From the IMG/VR virus record IMGVR_UViG_3300016484_001188, positions 1 through 43,475 of that record: a DNA stretch of 43,475 nt. One strand, 5' to 3'. Position numbers and translations under genes: made by a program. Below the pieces are notes generated by a model. The model did no database searches and had not been told where the DNA came from. It was given only the letters and a program-made list of their open reading frames with translations. Positions 24,949 through 34,418 of this stretch are shown here, piece by piece. Numbering within the stretch: the first letter of the stretch is position 1; the number at the start of each line of letters is the position of its first letter. The stretch is from a virus. Its lineage: Duplodnaviria; Caudoviricetes.

Positions 24949-25097
24949 CCATCGCGACCCGCGAAAAGGTGCTGGCTGCCGTGCAGCGCGCCCTGGATCT
25001 CGGCGCCAGCCAGACCGACGCGATCGAGTCAGCGGCGCAGGCGCTGTGGCTGCCGGTTGAGGCGGTGCGCGAGGTGGTGGAGGGCCAGGAGGCATGA
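24945..25097 (+). CDS. Small hypothetical protein (50 aa)
   Basis: MTIATREKVLAAV...; ATGA overlaps at both ends. Confidence 0.6.
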   Translation: MTIATREKVLAAVQRALDLGASQTDAIESAAQALWLPVEAVREVVEGQEA

Positions 25098-26326
25098 GCC
25101 GCGTCGAGATCCGCCAGGCAGGCCTGTTCGGCACAGGCCAACGCCTGCAGATGACCGAGAGCATCGAGCTGAGCATCCAGTCGATGCACGCCTATGGCCG
25201 GGATCATGCCCACTGGGGGATCGCGTGGTCCGGCGGCAAGGACAGCAGCGCGACGCTCACCCTGCTGATGTGGATGCTCGACACCGGCAAGATCGCCCGG
25301 CCCGAGACGTTGACGGTGTTCTACGCCGACACGCGACAGGAGCTGCCCCCGCTGGCGGTGGCGGCCGCGCAGATCATGGACGAGCTGCGCGAGCGCGGCG
25401 TCAGCGTCGAGGTCGTGATGGCGCCCATGGACAAGCGCTTCATGGTCTACATCCTCGGCCGTGGCGTGCCGCCGCCGAACAACAACACGCTGCGCTGGTG
25501 CACTCGGCAGATCAAGATCGACCCGATGGAAGAGGCGCTGCGCGCTCGCCTCGATCAGCTGGCCGGCAACATCCTCATGATCACCGGCGTGCGCCAAGGT
25601 GAGAGCGCAGTGCGCGACGCCCGCATCGAGATGAGCTGCGGTAAGGACGGCGCCGAGTGTGGCCAGGGGTGGTACCAGCAGATCCTGCCGAACGCGAAGG
25701 GCCTGCGCGGCCGCCTGGCCACGCTCGCGCCGCTGCTGCATTGGCGCGTTTGCCACGTGTGGGAATGGCTGCGCCACTGGGCGCCTGAAGCGGAGTTCGG
25801 CGACTGGTCAACGGCCATGATCGCCCAGGCCTACGGTGGCGACGAGGCCGAAGAGATCAACGCACGCACTGGCTGCATTGGCTGCCCACTGGCCTCGGAA
25901 GAGAAGGCGCTCGAGAACGTGCTGGCCATGGATGCGTGGGCCTACCTGGCGCCGCTGCGCGGCCTGAAGCCACTGTGGCGTGAACTGCGCGCGCCGCACC
26001 ACCGGCTGAAGAAGGCCGGCCTGGAGCGCCTGAAGGACGGCAGCATCGCTAAGAACCCGCAACGCATGGGCCCGCTGACCTTCGCCGCTCGCCTGATGGC
26101 GCTCGACCGCATCCTGGGCATCCAGTCCGAGGTCAACGCCGCGGCCGCGCTGCTCGGGCGCCCCACGATCAACCTGATCGACGCCGAGGAAGAGGCGCGC
26201 ATCCGAGATCTGATCGCTGCCGAGACCTGGCCCGATGGCTGGGCCGGCGATGAGCCAACCGGCGACACGGTGCTGCCTGTCGTCTTCCAGAACGGCGCGG
26301 TGCAGCCGCTGCTTTTCCGCACCTAG
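25094..26326 (+). CDS. PAPS-reductase family (DndC-like) PP-loop protein
   Basis: WSGGKDS PP-loop, DTRQE, LRWCT..IKI.P, GVR.GES..R, RTGCIGCP. Confidence 0.85.
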   Translation: MSRVEIRQAGLFGTGQRLQMTESIELSIQSMHAYGRDHAHWGIAWSGGKDSSATLTLLMWMLDTGKIARPETLTVFYADTRQELPPLAVAAAQIMDELRERGVSVEVVMAPMDKRFMVYILGRGVPPPNNNTLRWCTRQIKIDPMEEALRARLDQLAGNILMITGVRQGESAVRDARIEMSCGKDGAECGQGWYQQILPNAKGLRGRLATLAPLLHWRVCHVWEWLRHWAPEAEFGDWSTAMIAQAYGGDEAEEINARTGCIGCPLASEEKALENVLAMDAWAYLAPLRGLKPLWRELRAPHHRLKKAGLERLKDGSIAKNPQRMGPLTFAARLMALDRILGIQSEVNAAAALLGRPTINLIDAEEEARIRDLIAAETWPDGWAGDEPTGDTVLPVVFQNGAVQPLLFRT

Positions 26327-26334
26327 GAAGCCGC

Positions 26335-26715
26335 GTGAGAAACATCAGCTTCGCCCTGACCGTGCCCCAGGTGATGGAGGGCACGAAGACCGTCACGCGG
26401 CGCCTGGGCTGGATGCACCTGAAGGTGGGCGACCAGCTGCGCCCCGTGCGCAAGTGCATGGGCCTGCGGCCCGGCGAGAAGCTCGACGTGCTGCGCGATC
26501 CCATCATCGTGGTCGACGTGCGCCGGGAACCGCTGCGCCGTATGACCGACGACCTCGACTATGGCTTCACCGAGTGCGTGCTTGAGGGCTTCGGCGCGCA
26601 CCCGGACTACCGCTTCCCGAGCGCCTTCGTGGACATGTTCTGTGCCACGCACCGCGGCTGCACGCCCGACACGCTGGTGACGCGGATCGAGTTCGCATAC
26701 CGCCGGGAGGCCTGA
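26335..26715 (+). CDS. ASCH/PUA-like domain protein
   Basis: ISF......GTKTVTRR, EGF, TRIEF. Confidence 0.8.
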   Translation: MRNISFALTVPQVMEGTKTVTRRLGWMHLKVGDQLRPVRKCMGLRPGEKLDVLRDPIIVVDVRREPLRRMTDDLDYGFTECVLEGFGAHPDYRFPSAFVDMFCATHRGCTPDTLVTRIEFAYRREA

Positions 26716-27578
26716 TGCCAGTCACCCGCCCCGCCCTGCGCTACCACGGCGGCAAGTTCAGGCTGGCGCCGTGGATCTTGGGCTTCTTCCCAGACCACAG
26801 CGCCTACGTCGAGCCATTCGGCGGTGCCGGCTCGGTGCTGCTGCAGAAAGCGCCAGCCATGGCTGAGTGCTACAACGACCTAGACGGCCGCATCGTCTCG
26901 TTTTTTCGAGTACTGCGCGACCCCGTCAAGTCCGAAGAGTTGCGCCGGCGCGTCTCGCTTACACCGTACGCCCGCGCTGAGCTGGAATGGGCCTTCGGCG
27001 AGCCGATCGACGAAGTCGACGCTGCGCACCGCCTGGTAGTCCGGTCCTTCCTGGGGCATGGGTCGGACTCCGCCACGCGGACCACCCGCACCGGTTTTCG
27101 CGCCAGACTGACAGACGGCCGCGCGCTGCCATCGGCCGAATGGTCGACTTGGCCAGCGTCGATCGAGACCTTCCGCGAGCGCCTGGCCGGCGTACTCATC
27201 GACAACGACGACGCGGTGCGCGTCATCGACCGCATGGACCACCCGCGCACGCTCATCTACTGCGATCCGCCCTACGTCTTCAGCTCGCGCAGCAGCAAGA
27301 CGAACAAGCGCACCAGCACCACCCGCGGCTACCAGCACGAAATGACCGACGCCGACCACGAGCGGCTGGCCGAGCGCCTGCAGCGCGCCGCCGGGATGGT
27401 CGTCATCTCGGGCTACCCGAGCGCCCTCTACGACCGGCTGTACACCGGCTGGGAGCGCCACCAGCGGCAGGCGATCGCCGACTCGGCCAAGGTCCGCACC
27501 GAGGTGGTCTGGCTCAACCCCGCCTGCAGCCAGGCGCTGCAACGCTCGCGCGGCGGGCTTTTTGCGGAGCACGCGTGA
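26715..27578 (+). CDS. DNA adenine methyltransferase (Dam/D12 class)
   Basis: RYHGGK, YVEPFGGAGSV SAM motif, YND, YCDPPY catalytic motif. Confidence 0.92.
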   Translation: MPVTRPALRYHGGKFRLAPWILGFFPDHSAYVEPFGGAGSVLLQKAPAMAECYNDLDGRIVSFFRVLRDPVKSEELRRRVSLTPYARAELEWAFGEPIDEVDAAHRLVVRSFLGHGSDSATRTTRTGFRARLTDGRALPSAEWSTWPASIETFRERLAGVLIDNDDAVRVIDRMDHPRTLIYCDPPYVFSSRSSKTNKRTSTTRGYQHEMTDADHERLAERLQRAAGMVVISGYPSALYDRLYTGWERHQRQAIADSAKVRTEVVWLNPACSQALQRSRGGLFAEHA

Positions 27579-27802
27579 CCGACCTGGTGCTCACCGACGC
27601 CGAGCTGGTCGCCGTCACCGGCTACCGCCAATCGGCCGCCCAGCTGCGCGAACTGCTGGAGCGCGGCTTCTGGCTGGCCAGGCGCTCGGCGCTGACGGGC
27701 CGGGTAATCCTCGACCGCGCCCACTACGAGGCCGTCTGCCAGGGCGCCGACCGGGCGCCGGACACCGCGCCCCGCCGCAGGCCTATGCTGCGGGCTGTAT
27801 GA
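27575..27802 (+). CDS. Excisionase-like protein (DUF4224-like)
   Basis: LTDAELVAVTGY.Q..AQ.R.L; GTG start; directly upstream of the integrase. Confidence 0.75.
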   Translation: MTDLVLTDAELVAVTGYRQSAAQLRELLERGFWLARRSALTGRVILDRAHYEAVCQGADRAPDTAPRRRPMLRAV

Positions 27803-28791
27803 CCCGATCCGACCTGCCCCGCCGTGTCTACGAGAAGCACGGCGCCTACTACTTCGTGACGCCCGCGGCCAAGTGGATCAAGCTTTGCCGCGTCGACGAC
27901 GGCCTGCCGGCAATGTTCCGCGCGCTGGCCCGGCTGACCGACCAGGAGGCCCACAGCGGCCGCATGCCGGCCGTCATCGCCCGCTGGGTCGAGTCCAAGC
28001 GCAGCGAGTGGAGCGACGGCCACGCCGAGGACCAGGACCGAATCGCCAAGTACATGGGCACCAGGTTCGCCGACTTCCTGCCCTCGGACGTGACGACGCC
28101 CGTGTGCGCCGAGTACCTGAAGAAGCTGGCCAGCAAGCCGCGCACGCACAACCAGCACCGCACCATGCTGCGCCAGGTGCTCGCCTTCGCGGCCATCGAG
28201 GGTCTGCGCGAGGGCCACAACCCGGTCGACAACATCCCGGCCAAGAAGCTGGAGCAGCGGATCCGTATCGTCACCGACGACGAGGTCAAGGCCATGAAGG
28301 CGGCCGCGCTGCTGCAGACCCGCAACGCCGAGGCCCTGGTGCGCATGATCGACCTGGCCATGATCACCGGCCAGCGCATCGGCGACCTGATCCGCATCCG
28401 CTGGCAGGACGTGACCGACGCCGGTATCGTCGTGGTGCAGGGCAAGGGCCAGGGCCGGGTGCGGCTGCTGATCGAGTGGTCGCCGGCCCTGCGTGTCGCC
28501 GTCGAGGCCTGCGCCAAGGGCACCGAGAAGATCGGCCACCTGCTGAAGACACAGAGCGGCCACGGCTACCGCTACGCCGGCATCCGCTCAGCCTGGGACA
28601 GGGCCGCCGAGCGCGCGGGCATCGAGGATCTGCACATCCACGACCTGCGCGGCCGCTCCGGTGTCGACGCGCTGGAAGCCGCCGGCCAGGACATCAAGGC
28701 GGCGCAGAAACTGCTGGGGCATACCAGCGAGGCGATGACGCGCCAGTATGTCGAGGGCAAGTTCGCCAAGCGCGTGAAGCCGGCCCGCTGA
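27799..28791 (+). CDS. int: Tyrosine integrase
   Basis: TGQRIGD (R), HDLR (H-x-x-R), LLGH, TRQY; N-terminal arm-binding-type LPRRVYEKHGAYYF. Confidence 0.95.
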   Translation: MTRSDLPRRVYEKHGAYYFVTPAAKWIKLCRVDDGLPAMFRALARLTDQEAHSGRMPAVIARWVESKRSEWSDGHAEDQDRIAKYMGTRFADFLPSDVTTPVCAEYLKKLASKPRTHNQHRTMLRQVLAFAAIEGLREGHNPVDNIPAKKLEQRIRIVTDDEVKAMKAAALLQTRNAEALVRMIDLAMITGQRIGDLIRIRWQDVTDAGIVVVQGKGQGRVRLLIEWSPALRVAVEACAKGTEKIGHLLKTQSGHGYRYAGIRSAWDRAAERAGIEDLHIHDLRGRSGVDALEAAGQDIKAAQKLLGHTSEAMTRQYVEGKFAKRVKPAR

Positions 28792-28793
28792 GC

Positions 28794-28955
28794 TGTCTAA
28801 AAGGGTTTCGGCCCACCCGGGAAAACCTCGCGTTTTCTGCCTTTCCAGAATTAGACAAACCGGCCGCAAACCCGCATGAATGCTGGATAGCGCACCAGCC
28901 TTCTAAGCAGACGTTCACCCTATGACGGGTGTCTAAAAATACGGGCTTTGTCTAA
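28794..28955. other. attP: arm-type TGTCTAA repeats flanking a tRNA-Arg-like core (28883-28908)
   Basis: TGTCTAA at 28794, 28930 and 28949, inverted at 28851; core CTGGATAGCGCACCAGCCTTCTAAGC resembles a tRNA D-loop to anticodon segment. Confidence 0.75.
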
Positions 28956-28957
28956 AT

Positions 28958-29034
28958 CCGCCAGTAGCTCAACTGGATAGAGCACGCGCCTTCTAAGCGC
29001 GAGGTCGGGGGTTCGAGTCCCTCCTGGCGGGCCA
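28958..29034 (+). tRNA. tRNA-Arg (anticodon UCU)
   Basis: Full cloverleaf: acceptor CCGCCAG/CTGGCGG, D stem GCTC/GAGC, anticodon stem CGCGC/GCGCG with loop CTTCTAA, TTCGAGT T loop, encoded CCA. Confidence 0.97.
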
Positions 29035-29052
29035 ATTTCTCTGCCGACTTGA

Positions 29053-29072
29053 TACTGTATGCTCGTCCAGCA
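29053..29072. promoter_or_regulatory. Putative LexA (SOS) box
   Basis: TACTGTATGCTCGTCCAGCA fits CTG-N10-CAG with a consensus left half; abuts the ATG at 29072. Confidence 0.7.
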
Positions 29073-29404
29073 TGAGGCAGGTCGAGACATACCGATGGCG
29101 CGTCCAGTGGCTGGGCCGCTGGACCACCACGCGGCATCACACCAGCGAGGAAGACATCCGCGTTGAGCACCCGGAAGCGGTCGCCGTGCCGGGCTCGCTT
29201 ATCGTGCTGGAGGTGCCGGAGACCGACGACGAGCGCGAGGCCCTGAACGCCCGCATCACCTTCGGCCGCGTTGCGACGCCGGCGCCAGGGATGCCGCCTC
29301 TCAGGTCGGCTTGCTCGGCCGGCGCCAGTCCCAAGGGGCCACCGGCGCAGGATCAGCCCACAGGCCACGCCGCGATTCCCGCGCCGCCGCTTCAGCGGTC
29401 TTGA
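29072..29404 (+). CDS. Putative SOS-regulated small protein (candidate antirepressor)
   Basis: ORF starts at the LexA box; N-terminal 65 aa look protein-like; 3' part overlaps the convergent nuclease gene. Confidence 0.6.
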   Translation: MRQVETYRWRVQWLGRWTTTRHHTSEEDIRVEHPEAVAVPGSLIVLEVPETDDEREALNARITFGRVATPAPGMPPLRSACSAGASPKGPPAQDQPTGHAAIPAPPLQRS

Positions 29405-29723
29405 TGCTGGGATCGGTCAGGTACTTGGTGAACGCCCAGGCCATGCCCGCCCTCACCTGCTCGGCGCTCGCATCCTGGCCAGCGCACGACACGCGCGCCA
29501 CGGTGCGCCCGTAGCGGTCGCGGGTCTGCGGCCGCACTTCGGCGCGCAACTCGTGGCACAACTCGGCCAGATGCTGGCGGCTGCGTTCGCCCCAGGCTTG
29601 GGCTTTCTCGGGCGCGTCGATCTCGGCCAGGCGGATGATGGCCACGGGGTCATCGCCGCAGCGCACGCGCAGCGTGTCGCCGTCGGTGATGGCGACGACC
29701 AGGCAGAGCAACAGGGAATCCAT
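29301..29723 (-). CDS. Thermonuclease (SNase family)
   Basis: VVAITDGDTL, IRLAEIDAPE, DRYGRTVA, ARE.RRGLW. Confidence 0.92.
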   Translation of the reverse strand: MDSLLLCLVVAITDGDTLRVRCGDDPVAIIRLAEIDAPEKAQAWGERSRQHLAELCHELRAEVRPQTRDRYGRTVARVSCAGQDASAEQVRAGMAWAFTKYLTDPSIKTAEAAARESRRGLWADPAPVAPWDWRRPSKPT

Positions 29724-29784
29724 CGGGCGAGTGTCGGCGGCAACGGGGCTGCGTCAGCATCCCCCTGAGTGGGGGGAGCCGCGA

Positions 29785-30156
29785 TCAGCCGGCACCGAAA
29801 GCCGCGCGCACCTGGGCGGCGATCTGCGGCAGCGCACGATCCAGGGCGCCACGGTCACGGATGCGGAGATTGACCTCGCCCGGCACGCCGGCCGCCTCGA
29901 GCTGCGCGCATGCGGCTGCGTGGGCATCCATCCACAGCGCGCCGGCATCGCAGTGGCGCGCCGACATGCGGGGCTCCTGCGCCAGCATGTCCGACCGGTC
30001 GAGCTCGAACCAACAGTAGGCCGCCACCATCGGATCGACGTCGGACGCGTCGAACACTCCGGCTGCCGCGCAGCGAGCCGCATCCAGTGCGGACGCTTCG
30101 GCGCCATCGGCCTCGATCAGGATTTGCTCAAATGCGCTCATGACGCTGGGCATCAT
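29785..30156 (-). CDS. Hypothetical protein
   Basis: 123 aa ORF fills the gap between the nuclease and SRAP genes. Confidence 0.5.
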   Translation of the reverse strand: MMPSVMSAFEQILIEADGAEASALDAARCAAAGVFDASDVDPMVAAYCWFELDRSDMLAQEPRMSARHCDAGALWMDAHAAACAQLEAAGVPGEVNLRIRDRGALDRALPQIAAQVRAAFGAG

Positions 30157-30191
30157 AGCGACCGTGCCCGCGGCCTGCCTGGAGTGTGCCC

Positions 30192-30875
30192 ATGTGCTCG
30201 AACTACGTCGCGGTCACCAGCATTGACCGCTTGCTCAGCTTCTTCGGCGTAACACCGACCGGCGACATGGATCTGCCGGCCGAGGTGTACCCGCTGGGGC
30301 TCGCGCCGTTCATCCGCCTGGCTGAAGACGGTTCGGGCAACAAGATCGTGGAGGGCGGGCAGTTCGGCCTGCTGCCGGTGTTCGCCAAAGAAATCGCCTA
30401 CGGCCGGCGCACGTACAACGCGCGGTCGGAGACGGTGGCCACGTTGGCCAGCTTCCGCGACGCATGGAAGCGCGGCCAGCGCTGCATCATCCCCGCCGAA
30501 CTGGTCTACGAGCCCTGCTGGGAGACCGGGAAGGCCGTGCGGTGGGCCATCCAACAGCCTGGCGGCGTGCCGATGGGGATCGCCGGCATCTACCGGCGCT
30601 GGCGGGCGCCTGACGGGGTAGACCGGTGGACGTTCGCCATGCTGACCGTCAACGCGGATGGGCACCCGGTTTTCAAGCGCATGCACCGCCCTGAGGACGA
30701 GAAGCGCATGGTGGTGATCCTCAGCGAGGAGGATCAAGACCGGTGGCTGGGTTGCTCGGTCAGCGAGGCGCCCGCATTCTTCCGGCAGTGGACGGGCCCA
30801 TTGGAGGCGTTCGCAGCACCGAAGGGCGGTATGCCCCGCCCGAAGCCTCAGCCGCCGCAGCAGAACCTGTTCTGA
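30192..30875 (+). CDS. SOS response-associated peptidase (SRAP/YedK-like, abasic-site protecting)
   Basis: N-terminal MC, YNARSET, RCIIPA..VYE, MH...EKRM.VIL; GGAG RBS. Confidence 0.92.
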   Translation: MCSNYVAVTSIDRLLSFFGVTPTGDMDLPAEVYPLGLAPFIRLAEDGSGNKIVEGGQFGLLPVFAKEIAYGRRTYNARSETVATLASFRDAWKRGQRCIIPAELVYEPCWETGKAVRWAIQQPGGVPMGIAGIYRRWRAPDGVDRWTFAMLTVNADGHPVFKRMHRPEDEKRMVVILSEEDQDRWLGCSVSEAPAFFRQWTGPLEAFAAPKGGMPRPKPQPPQQNLF

Positions 30876-32474: not shown

Positions 32475-34418
32475 TCAGGCGTGCGCCACGTACCAGGTGA
32501 AACCGGGCGGGGGCGGCATGTCGGCGTTCAGGTTGGAGTTTGTGAAGACCTTCCAACCGCTGATCGAGCCCGAGCCTGGCCCTGTCAACTCGCGATCGGT
32601 CAGCTTGCGGGTGCGCGGCGTGCCAGGCGGCAGGGACTCGAGCATCAGGTAGAGCAGCGGGTAGAACAGCGTGGTCAGCTCCTGCCCGCTTGACTCGATC
32701 TCGTGCGGCCCTTGAGTGCCAGTAACGAGCAGGCGGTGCGTGCCCGGTCGAACCCCCTTGAGCAGCCACGGCATGTTGCTCAGGTGCTCGGAGAATCCGC
32801 AGCGGGCAGCGTTGTTCAGCGCCGTGTTGGCCGAGTCGGTGACCGGCTCATACGCCATGAAGTTCGTGGTGTCGCAATCGCACGAACCGCACGCCGCGAG
32901 ATAGTCGGCGTAGTCGGGATCCGTCTCAGGCTTGGCCGTCTCGAAGTAGACGGCGAACGGCGGCCGCGCGTTGAGTGCCGCGATCACCTTCTCGTCGGTC
33001 AGCGGGCCCTTGCCTGCGCCGAAGCCACAACCAGGCAAGCGAACACCGAACGCGTCGCGGATCGTCAGGTGGCCCTTGTAAAGGGCGCCCAGCGCGGCCT
33101 TGTAGTCGCTTGACGGCTTGAAGGTGATGTTCTGGAACACGACGTCGACGCTCCAGCGCCATGCGTCGTTGTTGGGCTTGTCGTTGTCGCCCTGCACCAG
33201 CACTCCACCCTCGATCTCACCGGCGCTGATCTCCAGGTTCTTGCAGCTCAGCACCTGCCCTACCCAGACACGCTCCCCGCCCACCACGTTGAAAAGCGTC
33301 GGGTAGATGGTGCCGGGCGACCAAGCGTCGATCTTCGACACCTTCAGGGACGCGCAGTTGTTGAACTTGAAGCCGCCAGACTTGCAACTTGCGCCGACCT
33401 GATCGACCTTGCCGTCCGACACGCTGTCCCAAACGATGCCAATGCCGTCGCAGTCCGTCGCCTTGAAGTTCCGGCCGCGCACCTGGTCGTTGTCTTCGAT
33501 CAGGATGCCGTGGCCCGGCATGTCGGCCACGATGAGGTTCTCGAGGTCAGGTGACCGGTCGGACTTGCTCACAACCGGTTTTGGCACGTGGATACCGTGC
33601 CGACGGTGCCCGGTCGGTTGAGCGCCCAGGTTGCCGCTCAACGTGAAGTTACGCAGGACTGGCTGCGGGTTGATGTTCCACTTCTTCTTGCCGTCGTCGC
33701 GATAGGTCAGCATCGCGTCGTCGGGCCCGGCCACGCCGCCCAGGCTGCTGTAGTCAGCACGCAGGACGCTGGCGCCTGGAGATGCGCCGCTGCCCTCAAT
33801 ACCCACACCGCGTCGCGAGACGAACAGCGGCCCAACCGAGCAGATGCCCGTCCGCAGCCGCACCAGGTTGCCGTTACCAACGTCCTGCCCGTGCGTCTCG
33901 GTCGCCGCCGCCTCGTCCAGGCTCGCCTGCACGGCGACGGTGCTGACGGCGGAGTAGTCGAACTTCGCCCCGTGGTCCCGCGCGGGGTCTCGCACGTTGA
34001 CCATGGCACCCAGCGCGTCGGTCGTCCACCCAGTGTTGCCGGTGCCGCTCGCCTTGTAGTACAGGGCCTGCGTGCTCGTGGCGTCGATGCGGCGGTAGGT
34101 CGCCCCAACCGGCGCCGCGATCACCCCCTCGGGCGAGCCCAGGCCCAGGATCTCTCCGTCGGGCACCCAGGCGCCGTTGATCACCACCCAGTTGCTGCCC
34201 CAGGTGCCGCGATCGAGCATCACCGCCATGGCGCCGGTCAGGGCCTTGAGGTCATCGCGCGCGTCCAGCTCGGCGAACGTCCCGATCGCGGGGCTGGTGC
34301 ACAGCGTGTGCCCCGCGGCGCGTCCGACCTTGAAGGTGCGGAACTCCAGCCCCGACCGCATGCGGTCGATAAGGCGATCGAACCATCCTTGGTCCTCGAT
34401 GAATCCACCCTTGCGCAT
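32475..34418 (-). CDS. Tail spike with pectate-lyase-like beta-helix (putative depolymerase)
   Basis: GSPEGVIAAPVGATY and NTGW linker, VNVRD..GAK.D....VQA.LD cap, repeated G.GI beta-helix turns. Confidence 0.75.
   Translation of the reverse strand: MRKGGFIEDQGWFDRLIDRMRSGLEFRTFKVGRAAGHTLCTSPAIGTFAELDARDDLKALTGAMAVMLDRGTWGSNWVVINGAWVPDGEILGLGSPEGVIAAPVGATYRRIDATSTQALYYKASGTGNTGWTTDALGAMVNVRDPARDHGAKFDYSAVSTVAVQASLDEAAATETHGQDVGNGNLVRLRTGICSVGPLFVSRRGVGIEGSGASPGASVLRADYSSLGGVAGPDDAMLTYRDDGKKKWNINPQPVLRNFTLSGNLGAQPTGHRRHGIHVPKPVVSKSDRSPDLENLIVADMPGHGILIEDNDQVRGRNFKATDCDGIGIVWDSVSDGKVDQVGASCKSGGFKFNNCASLKVSKIDAWSPGTIYPTLFNVVGGERVWVGQVLSCKNLEISAGEIEGGVLVQGDNDKPNNDAWRWSVDVVFQNITFKPSSDYKAALGALYKGHLTIRDAFGVRLPGCGFGAGKGPLTDEKVIAALNARPPFAVYFETAKPETDPDYADYLAACGSCDCDTTNFMAYEPVTDSANTALNNAARCGFSEHLSNMPWLLKGVRPGTHRLLVTGTQGPHEIESSGQELTTLFYPLLYLMLESLPPGTPRTRKLTDRELTGPGSGSISGWKVFTNSNLNADMPPPPGFTWYVAHA

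Follow-up and report, generated by a model that had tools for sequence, protein, structure and literature searches.

The window, a 43,475-nt virus contig analysed here at its full length, very probably carries the attP of a temperate phage that splits the single tRNA-Arg(UCU) gene of its host without rebuilding it, and that brings a complete spare tRNA to replace the broken gene. In the proposed mechanism, the integrase would recombine within the anticodon loop of the only tRNA-Arg(UCU) gene that the host has and leave it split, with neither half restored, and the complete spare behind the arm sites would take over its function. The host tRNA promoter would read through the stub and the arms into the spare. 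A UCU anticodon is required to read AGA codons, and a lysogen deprived of the spare would be expected to die. The altered anticodon stem of the spare may keep the integrase off it, and the window phage would itself integrate in this manner in a host of the Sphaerotilaceae type.

The phage and its attachment site

A 22-base repeat at the two ends of the contig indicates the excised (attP) form, and the window encodes head, portal, terminase, tape-measure and repressor-like proteins, so we take it to be a circular temperate phage and the site to be its attP. The integrase gene (int) stops 2 bases upstream of the first arm repeat, and the small gene that overlaps its start is likely to encode the excisionase, judging from its size and position. 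The features of the region are as follows.

27575..27802, + strand: small DUF4224 gene, overlapping the int start (DUF4224 E 1.1e-4, slightly beyond the cut-off)
27799..28791, + strand: tyrosine integrase, 330 aa (PF00589 E 1.3e-20; PF22022)
28794..28800, + strand: arm-type repeat TGTCTAA, outer P arm (same layout in relatives)
28821..28839, + strand: weak second copy of the repeated attP motif (leave-one-out matrix, p=0.005), likely a host-factor site
28851..28857, - strand: arm-type repeat, inner P arm (in 27/27 flanks, its distance to the core is 42-43 bases)
28867..28889, + strand: core-proximal attP motif, matching 7/9 positions of what we take to be the IHF consensus; it contributes CCCG and CTGGAT to the tRNA likeness
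28883..28908, + strand: partial tRNA-like stretch, made up of the motif end, the left core site and the loop (23/26 to the spare tRNA)
28900..28906, + strand: predicted crossover region CTTCTAA in the anticodon loop, from junctions in relatives
28916..28925, + strand: short conserved CACCCTATGA-like (CCTATGA-like) motif between the core and the P' arms, found by eye
28930..28936, + strand: arm-type repeat, first P' arm (TGTCTAA copy)
28949..28955, + strand: arm-type repeat, second P' arm (TGTCTAA copy)
28958..29034, + strand: complete spare tRNA-Arg(UCU) (ARAGORN score 119.7, encoded CCA)

The sequence-only reading had described four TGTCTAA arm repeats around a partial tRNA copy, with a full tRNA-Arg(UCU) behind them, and each of these elements is borne out. 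The repeat occurs four times in the window, always within 28794-28955 (shuffled sequences have a mean of 0.37, and 0/100 reach four). The partial copy at 28883-28908 agrees with 28973-28998 at 23/26 positions, the next best ungapped match in the window being 16/26, and the tRNA that begins at 28958 is the sole ARAGORN tRNA in the window, lying 2 bases past the last arm and 50 past 28908. The common core measures 13 bp (28898-28910) or 17 bp (28892-28908), depending on the host allele. Past the loop, four bases follow the common host allele and the match to the 3' half is 13/38, so the tRNA 3' half is absent from attP, as had been read. The companion claim that there is no acceptor strand is nearly right, except that CCCG stands in register with acceptor positions 4-7. 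The motif at 28916-28925 was also spotted by eye in L089, L169, L021, L205, L175, L183, L174 and L104, and it appears in inverted form in L011, L015 and L173; it is possibly an excisionase or host-factor site.

Named close homologs of the integrase belong to Aquabacterium, Rubrivivax, Roseateles and Caldimonas (among the matches listed), which points to a Sphaerotilaceae-type host for the window phage. No close integrase was found among annotated phage records (best 35.7%), where the whole cassette was likewise without a match, and viral contigs scanned with the single protein gave relatives at 33-35% only. Among other genes nearby, those upstream of xis-int (25094-27578) encode a protein with a PAPS-reductase domain and an adenine methyltransferase of the D12 class, possibly a DNA-modification module; downstream of the tRNA (29301-30875) there are a staphylococcal-nuclease-like gene and an SRAP (SOS-associated peptidase) gene. 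A 647-aa ORF in the tail region (32475-34418; GC3 0.87) has a repeat-rich middle and may be a depolymerase-type tail protein.

Junctions in natural lysogens

A search for attL and attR in related prophages, suggested by the sequence-only reading, yielded both junctions in three genomes, namely G001 (element L011), G002 (L015) and G006 (L023). Their integrases are 58-64% identical to that of the window, which makes them the nearest lysogens; L173 provides a fourth attL, and L011 and L015 are from cultured Pelomonas isolates. In all three genomes the crossover lies in the anticodon loop and not at the tRNA 3' end, so the host tRNA is split where the earlier reading had placed the crossover. Each attL runs from the host 5' half through the core, phage sequence and two arms to the spare, and each attR, at the far junction, has an orphan host 3' half behind the P arm. 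The phage tRNA does land behind the host stub; measured from the start of the host tRNA, the distance is 119, 118 and 109 bases in G001, G002 and G006, respectively, and for the window we predict 90 bases. The orientation in G006 is that of the window. The elements in G001 and G002 carry phage genes but look partial (25 and 16 kb). For the window phage, an attB in the tRNA gene is deduced from the identical core. A single sequencing run, possibly the source of the record, was found to contain this phage, and no RNA run was among those listed. In the contigs of this run, attL/attR junctions are absent, and a 90-base "joint" considered as a junction there is most likely the tRNA of another organism.

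The idea that neither junction rebuilds a tRNA holds for the natural attR sites, where 3/3 have no default ARAGORN call (that of G002 scores 97.9), but is less clear-cut for the window, whose simulated attR scores 91.1 with the common host allele and 102.0 with the CCAGC allele (ARAGORN threshold 100; real tRNAs 119-125). The 5'-like stretch could accordingly be thought to rebuild a usable tRNA at attR from a phage 5' half and the host 3' half, read through from int, so that the spare would be non-essential. The stretch matches the 5' half of the CCAGC allele at 25/26 bases, and int points into it in the window orientation. The fold behind the score of 102.0, however, has two acceptor-stem mismatches and a collapsed D arm, and in the true register 4/7 acceptor and 0/4 D-stem pairs form. 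Among 27 flanks tested, moreover, 1 (common allele) or 2 (CCAGC allele) exceed 100. Together with the low common-allele score and the natural junctions, this makes a rebuilt tRNA very unlikely, and a host gene that stays split is the reading that we prefer. The borderline score of 102.0 is the strongest observation against an integration in which no tRNA at all is restored.

In each of G001, G002 and G006 the spare is the sole full-length BLAST match, which indicates, for these draft assemblies, that the disrupted host gene is non-redundant; the conventional lysogens G003 and G004 retain a rebuilt host gene. A second tRNA-Arg(UCU) gene elsewhere in the host would make the split harmless and abolish any dependence on the spare. 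Two hits are present in 6/105 matched genomes in the genus of G007, and a search for a lysogen or host of the exact window phage found neither. Against this, several of the second copies in the five two-hit genomes that were fetched sit, by eye, in contexts typical of other organisms and so may be bin contamination, and 41/43 matched genomes in the genus of G001 have a single hit, the other two being explained by a stub and a spare in a lysogen and by a duplicate at a contig end. We therefore give little credence to a redundant host gene, and dependence of the lysogen on the spare is the better account.

Replacement and conventional relatives

Genome, viral and metagenome contigs were searched with an alignment of 59 integrases (59 of 120 listed), and the best 80 loci of each set were considered. 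Integrase identity is at least 45% at 52 of these loci, including 10 duplicates and 5 without a readable site; the remaining 37 comprise 15 replacement sites, 18 conventional sites, 1 attR only and 3 other sites. We call a site conventional if the core is joined to the tRNA 3' half or the gene is rebuilt, and replacement if the core alone is followed by the P' arms and then by a full tRNA-Arg(UCU). The two types differ in the position of the first P' arm, whose distance from the core is 24 or ~44 bases at replacement sites and 71-76 at the majority of conventional sites. Both cassette orientations relative to int occur among the relatives. A single clade is rejected for the 16 replacement integrases, window included (p-AU 8e-44), so the cassette has been switched or exchanged repeatedly. 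Sister integrases below 45% identity mostly target tRNA-Pro(TGG) (14/17 tRNA calls).

A tRNA with the same anticodon stands behind the P' arms at 15/15 loci that lack the 3' half (it is broken in L021), versus 0/18 conventional relatives in the stretch examined. This distribution bears on whether the tRNA is simply cargo, for phage translation or against tRNA-cutting defences, with its place beside attP being incidental. Both roles have been proposed for phage tRNAs generally (PMC10865867, accessible text), and either could act additionally. As an explanation of the spare, cargo is nonetheless highly improbable, given the 15/15 versus 0/18 split and the fact that the spare is the only full copy in three lysogens. 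AGA makes up 14/13,037 phage codons in a rough ORF set (about 1 per 1000) and is absent from int, so translation of its own genes gives the phage little reason to carry the tRNA; replacement of the broken host gene accounts for it better.

Several relatives deserve separate mention. L021 (816-1030) has a replacement-type attP and a spare with an internal deletion, and the same bin has an intact host gene on another contig; it is a candidate natural non-lysogenizing mutant. L104 (2157-2330) combines a related integrase with the core CTACTAA and a short P' arm, with no tRNA nearby, and probably has a different target. The attP sites of L101, L102 and L179 fit G/C-stem host alleles, and the L102 3' half is the allele found in G148 and G546.

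The tRNA-like stretch left of the crossover

The sequence-only reading took the attP to mimic the 5' half of the tRNA. The likeness is real and in register, but it is common to conventional relatives too, which match the host 5' half at a mean of 10.1 of 17 positions, compared with 10.8 for replacement sites (p=0.06; 10.2 versus 11.1 against the best host allele, p=0.12). The window is the top scorer, with 14/17, or 16/17 against the second host (CCAGC) allele. Left of the loop, the likeness consists of the left core site plus the motif that fits the IHF consensus; L205 and L103 have a perfect IHF consensus in place of this core-proximal motif. A second copy of the motif lies further out in 18/27 flanks, mostly at -89, outside any tRNA register. 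In our reading, the apparent mimic is a site for protein binding that occurs in repeated copies and may derive from tRNA sequence.

The spare tRNA

The window spare differs from the common host allele at 10 positions, six of them in the anticodon stem, and every stem is paired. In 12 spares and one host tRNA, 273/273 stem cells are paired, with changes on both sides in 13/21 pairs; this count leaves out L172, L179 and L182, and for L179 and L182, which are shorter tRNAs, the T-stem check is out of register. Full pairing with two-sided changes argues that the spares have been kept as tRNAs.

The common host anticodon stem appears in 0/15 spares. Counting outward from the loop, the third base is G/C in 14/15 spares, whereas the same base is A/T in 26/27 left attP flanks and in 11/12 replacement right flanks. 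Among the attP sites the exception is L179, where both sides have G/C, in agreement with a G/C host allele, and the spare of G006 retains T at this key position. The spares are not independent, since they represent 9 distinct stems, 8 of them with G/C, and G/C is native at the third base in 24/111 host rows in the genus of G007. The pattern suggests that the integrase acts poorly on spares on account of their altered anticodon stem. This is of consequence, since the spare repeats the core in direct orientation at a distance of 90 bases.

A scan of 28600-29300 with E. coli-type consensus sequences, which may not fit the promoters of these hosts, detected neither a promoter nor a terminator, and -10-like hexamers are visible by eye upstream of the host stub in three lysogens. 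These two observations make it likely that the spare is transcribed from the host tRNA promoter, an arrangement that we refer to as promoter capture.

Divergent, possibly phage-derived alleles at the native host locus

In the genus of G001, 43/47 genomes matched the tRNA-Arg(UCU) pattern. The locus has the common allele in 31 of these (0-2 differences; a contig end truncates one), a stub plus spare in 3 and a divergent allele in 9; one of the stub-plus-spare genomes, G422, carries another integrase type. The divergent alleles of these nine genomes are fully paired and differ from the common allele at 11-18 positions. Allele A, present in 4 genomes, agrees with the L183 phage spare at 77/77 bases, and in viral contigs the allele A/C pattern is confined to the contig of L183.

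We propose, as a reading that stands about evenly between true and false, that phages act as tRNA gene-swappers. The stub and the prophage would be lost and the phage tRNA left at the native locus, and such an allele would now serve about 1 in 5 genomes of this genus (9/43), in most cases with an anticodon stem that has ceased to fit the window integrase. Some integrases would in turn be retargeted to new stems, and the result would be a cycle of allele turnover driven by conflict over the attachment site. A contrary reading, which we hold to be possible though somewhat doubtful, is that the divergent alleles are host variants spread by recombination and that phages took their spares from hosts, with no fixation from phage to host.

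The clearest observation is in G449, where the 33 bases abutting CCA read as an integrase C-terminus plus stop (25/33, compared with 9.9 +/- 3.1 in other genomes). G412 matches the integrase end at 20/33, and one common-allele genome at 17/33. Elsewhere, an integrase end abutting CCA is seen in replacement phages only. The relic in G449 is good evidence, at the level of sequence, that a phage spare was fixed in a host, and like that in G412 it runs counter to recombination among hosts alone. So does the gap in divergence, there being no allele with 3-10 differences, and so does the finding that shared identity among carriers of one allele does not rise near the tRNA. A tree of the upstream gene (39 genomes; 7 without the gene or with too short a gene are left out) rejects one clade for A, B and C (p-AU 2e-98, 8e-4 and 1e-55, respectively). 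In 7/9 divergent-allele genomes, the downstream DNA is shared with common-allele genomes.

Other results favor a host origin. A leftover native 3' half is absent in 9/9 replaced genomes, and an exact phage copy exists for allele A only, with 0 exact matches to allele B in viral contigs. The gyrB tree, which is unstable (it missed a better tree), is compatible with one clade for A (p 0.07) and for B. In the genus of G007 (105/121 genomes matched, 111 rows), there are eight stems and the alleles are highly mixed, 41/111 rows being of the common type by hand count; with stems so mixed, phages may equally have drawn their spares from hosts. In the same genus, G506 has a native-looking locus that closely resembles the spare of L089. 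The genus of G009 offers 2 genomes only. On balance, fixation of phage spares in hosts is suggested, with about even odds for the general reading. If this is correct, gene-swapping by phages would be a mechanism for abrupt turnover of bacterial tRNA alleles and for heritable loss of an attachment site.

Relation to known systems

The sequence-only reading left it undecided whether such a system is documented in proteobacteria; it is, from sequence only, in two S. meliloti prophages (PMC11476347, accessible text). The core mechanism is already published, and the window is a well-supported betaproteobacterial example. On present sequence evidence, it works like the tRNA-dependent lysogeny of actinobacteriophages (Fionnbharth K4, Cluster L, Gaia X, Gordonia CQ2/DL; Guerrero-Bustamante and Hatfull 2024, mBio, PMC10865867, as far as its accessible text goes), with which it shares five of seven defining features, among them a tyrosine integrase with an arm-flanked attP, an attB in a host tRNA gene, a short core without the 3' half and a non-redundant host gene. 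In both systems, as that text describes the phages, a core of 8-17 bp lies in a tRNA gene, no tRNA is rebuilt (probably so in the window), the phage supplies a same-isotype tRNA, close relatives rebuild the gene conventionally and the origin is repeated. Unlike the actinobacteriophages, the window belongs to a betaproteobacterial host group and uses tRNA-Arg(UCU). Its spare abuts the P' arms and lands behind the host stub, whereas in Fionnbharth the tRNA is located elsewhere, with a measured promoter of its own (PMC10865867). The accessible portion of that paper raises the possibility that a phage tRNA could act as a second attB site, while the spares here look altered against that, and it does not describe fixation of a phage tRNA at the native locus.

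In the Lo5R7ANS-like prophages of Sinorhizobium meliloti, the host tRNA-Leu(UAG) is broken centrally and a divergent prophage copy replaces it (PMC11476347, accessible text); on a proteobacterial case in print, see also the portions available of PMC12429752 and PMC13015707. The Lo5R7ANS spare, like that of the window, begins right after arm-like repeats. The order is different (arms, tRNA-Leu, core, arms; L352:8500-8840), with the spare inside attP, upstream of the core. Phage vB_MloP_Lo5R7ANS is presumably record KM199771. Integration would leave its spare at the opposite junction instead of behind the host promoter, in a mirror image of the window layout.

Conventional argU-type phages (DLP12 and epsilon34; PMC6379469, PMC2629481, accessible text) target the same tRNA isotype as the window, and our 18 conventional relatives share its core, arms and P-arm spacing. 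Both groups carry the 3' part in attP and rebuild the gene, unlike the window. The notion that DLP12 duplicates the 5' end of argU is contradicted by the accessible text of PMC6379469 and PMC2629481. In the Lactobacillus johnsonii prophage Lj965, as cited in the accessible text of PMC10865867, the tRNA is not rebuilt and a cognate tRNA is encoded, as here; its host is a Firmicute, unlike here.

Outside subscription journals, we found no publication on native-locus replacement or fixation by phage tRNAs, or on betaproteobacterial cases. What appears to be new is the compact cassette that would hand the host promoter to the phage tRNA, the alteration in nearly all spares of a core-site base that nearly all attP flanks keep, and the evidence that, in a considerable fraction of one genus, phage-type alleles have taken the place, at the locus itself, of a tRNA gene that is essential and was supposed to be inherited vertically. 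Island finders keyed to a 3' fragment will miss or misplace such prophages.

A second type of element (L270, at G422:C53:204768-204904; L357, in G569; L263, in G248; L264, in G374) breaks this tRNA gene too, at a point further downstream that lies within the T arm or close to it. Its spare tRNA-Arg(UCU) lies ~100-110 bases behind the host start, its integrase is of another family, and in G422 the far junction is 40 kb away. The AT-rich viral contigs L259 and L262 have the same stub-plus-spare tRNA-Arg(UCU) layout, with a distant integrase (24%) in L259, which suggests convergent use in another phylum.
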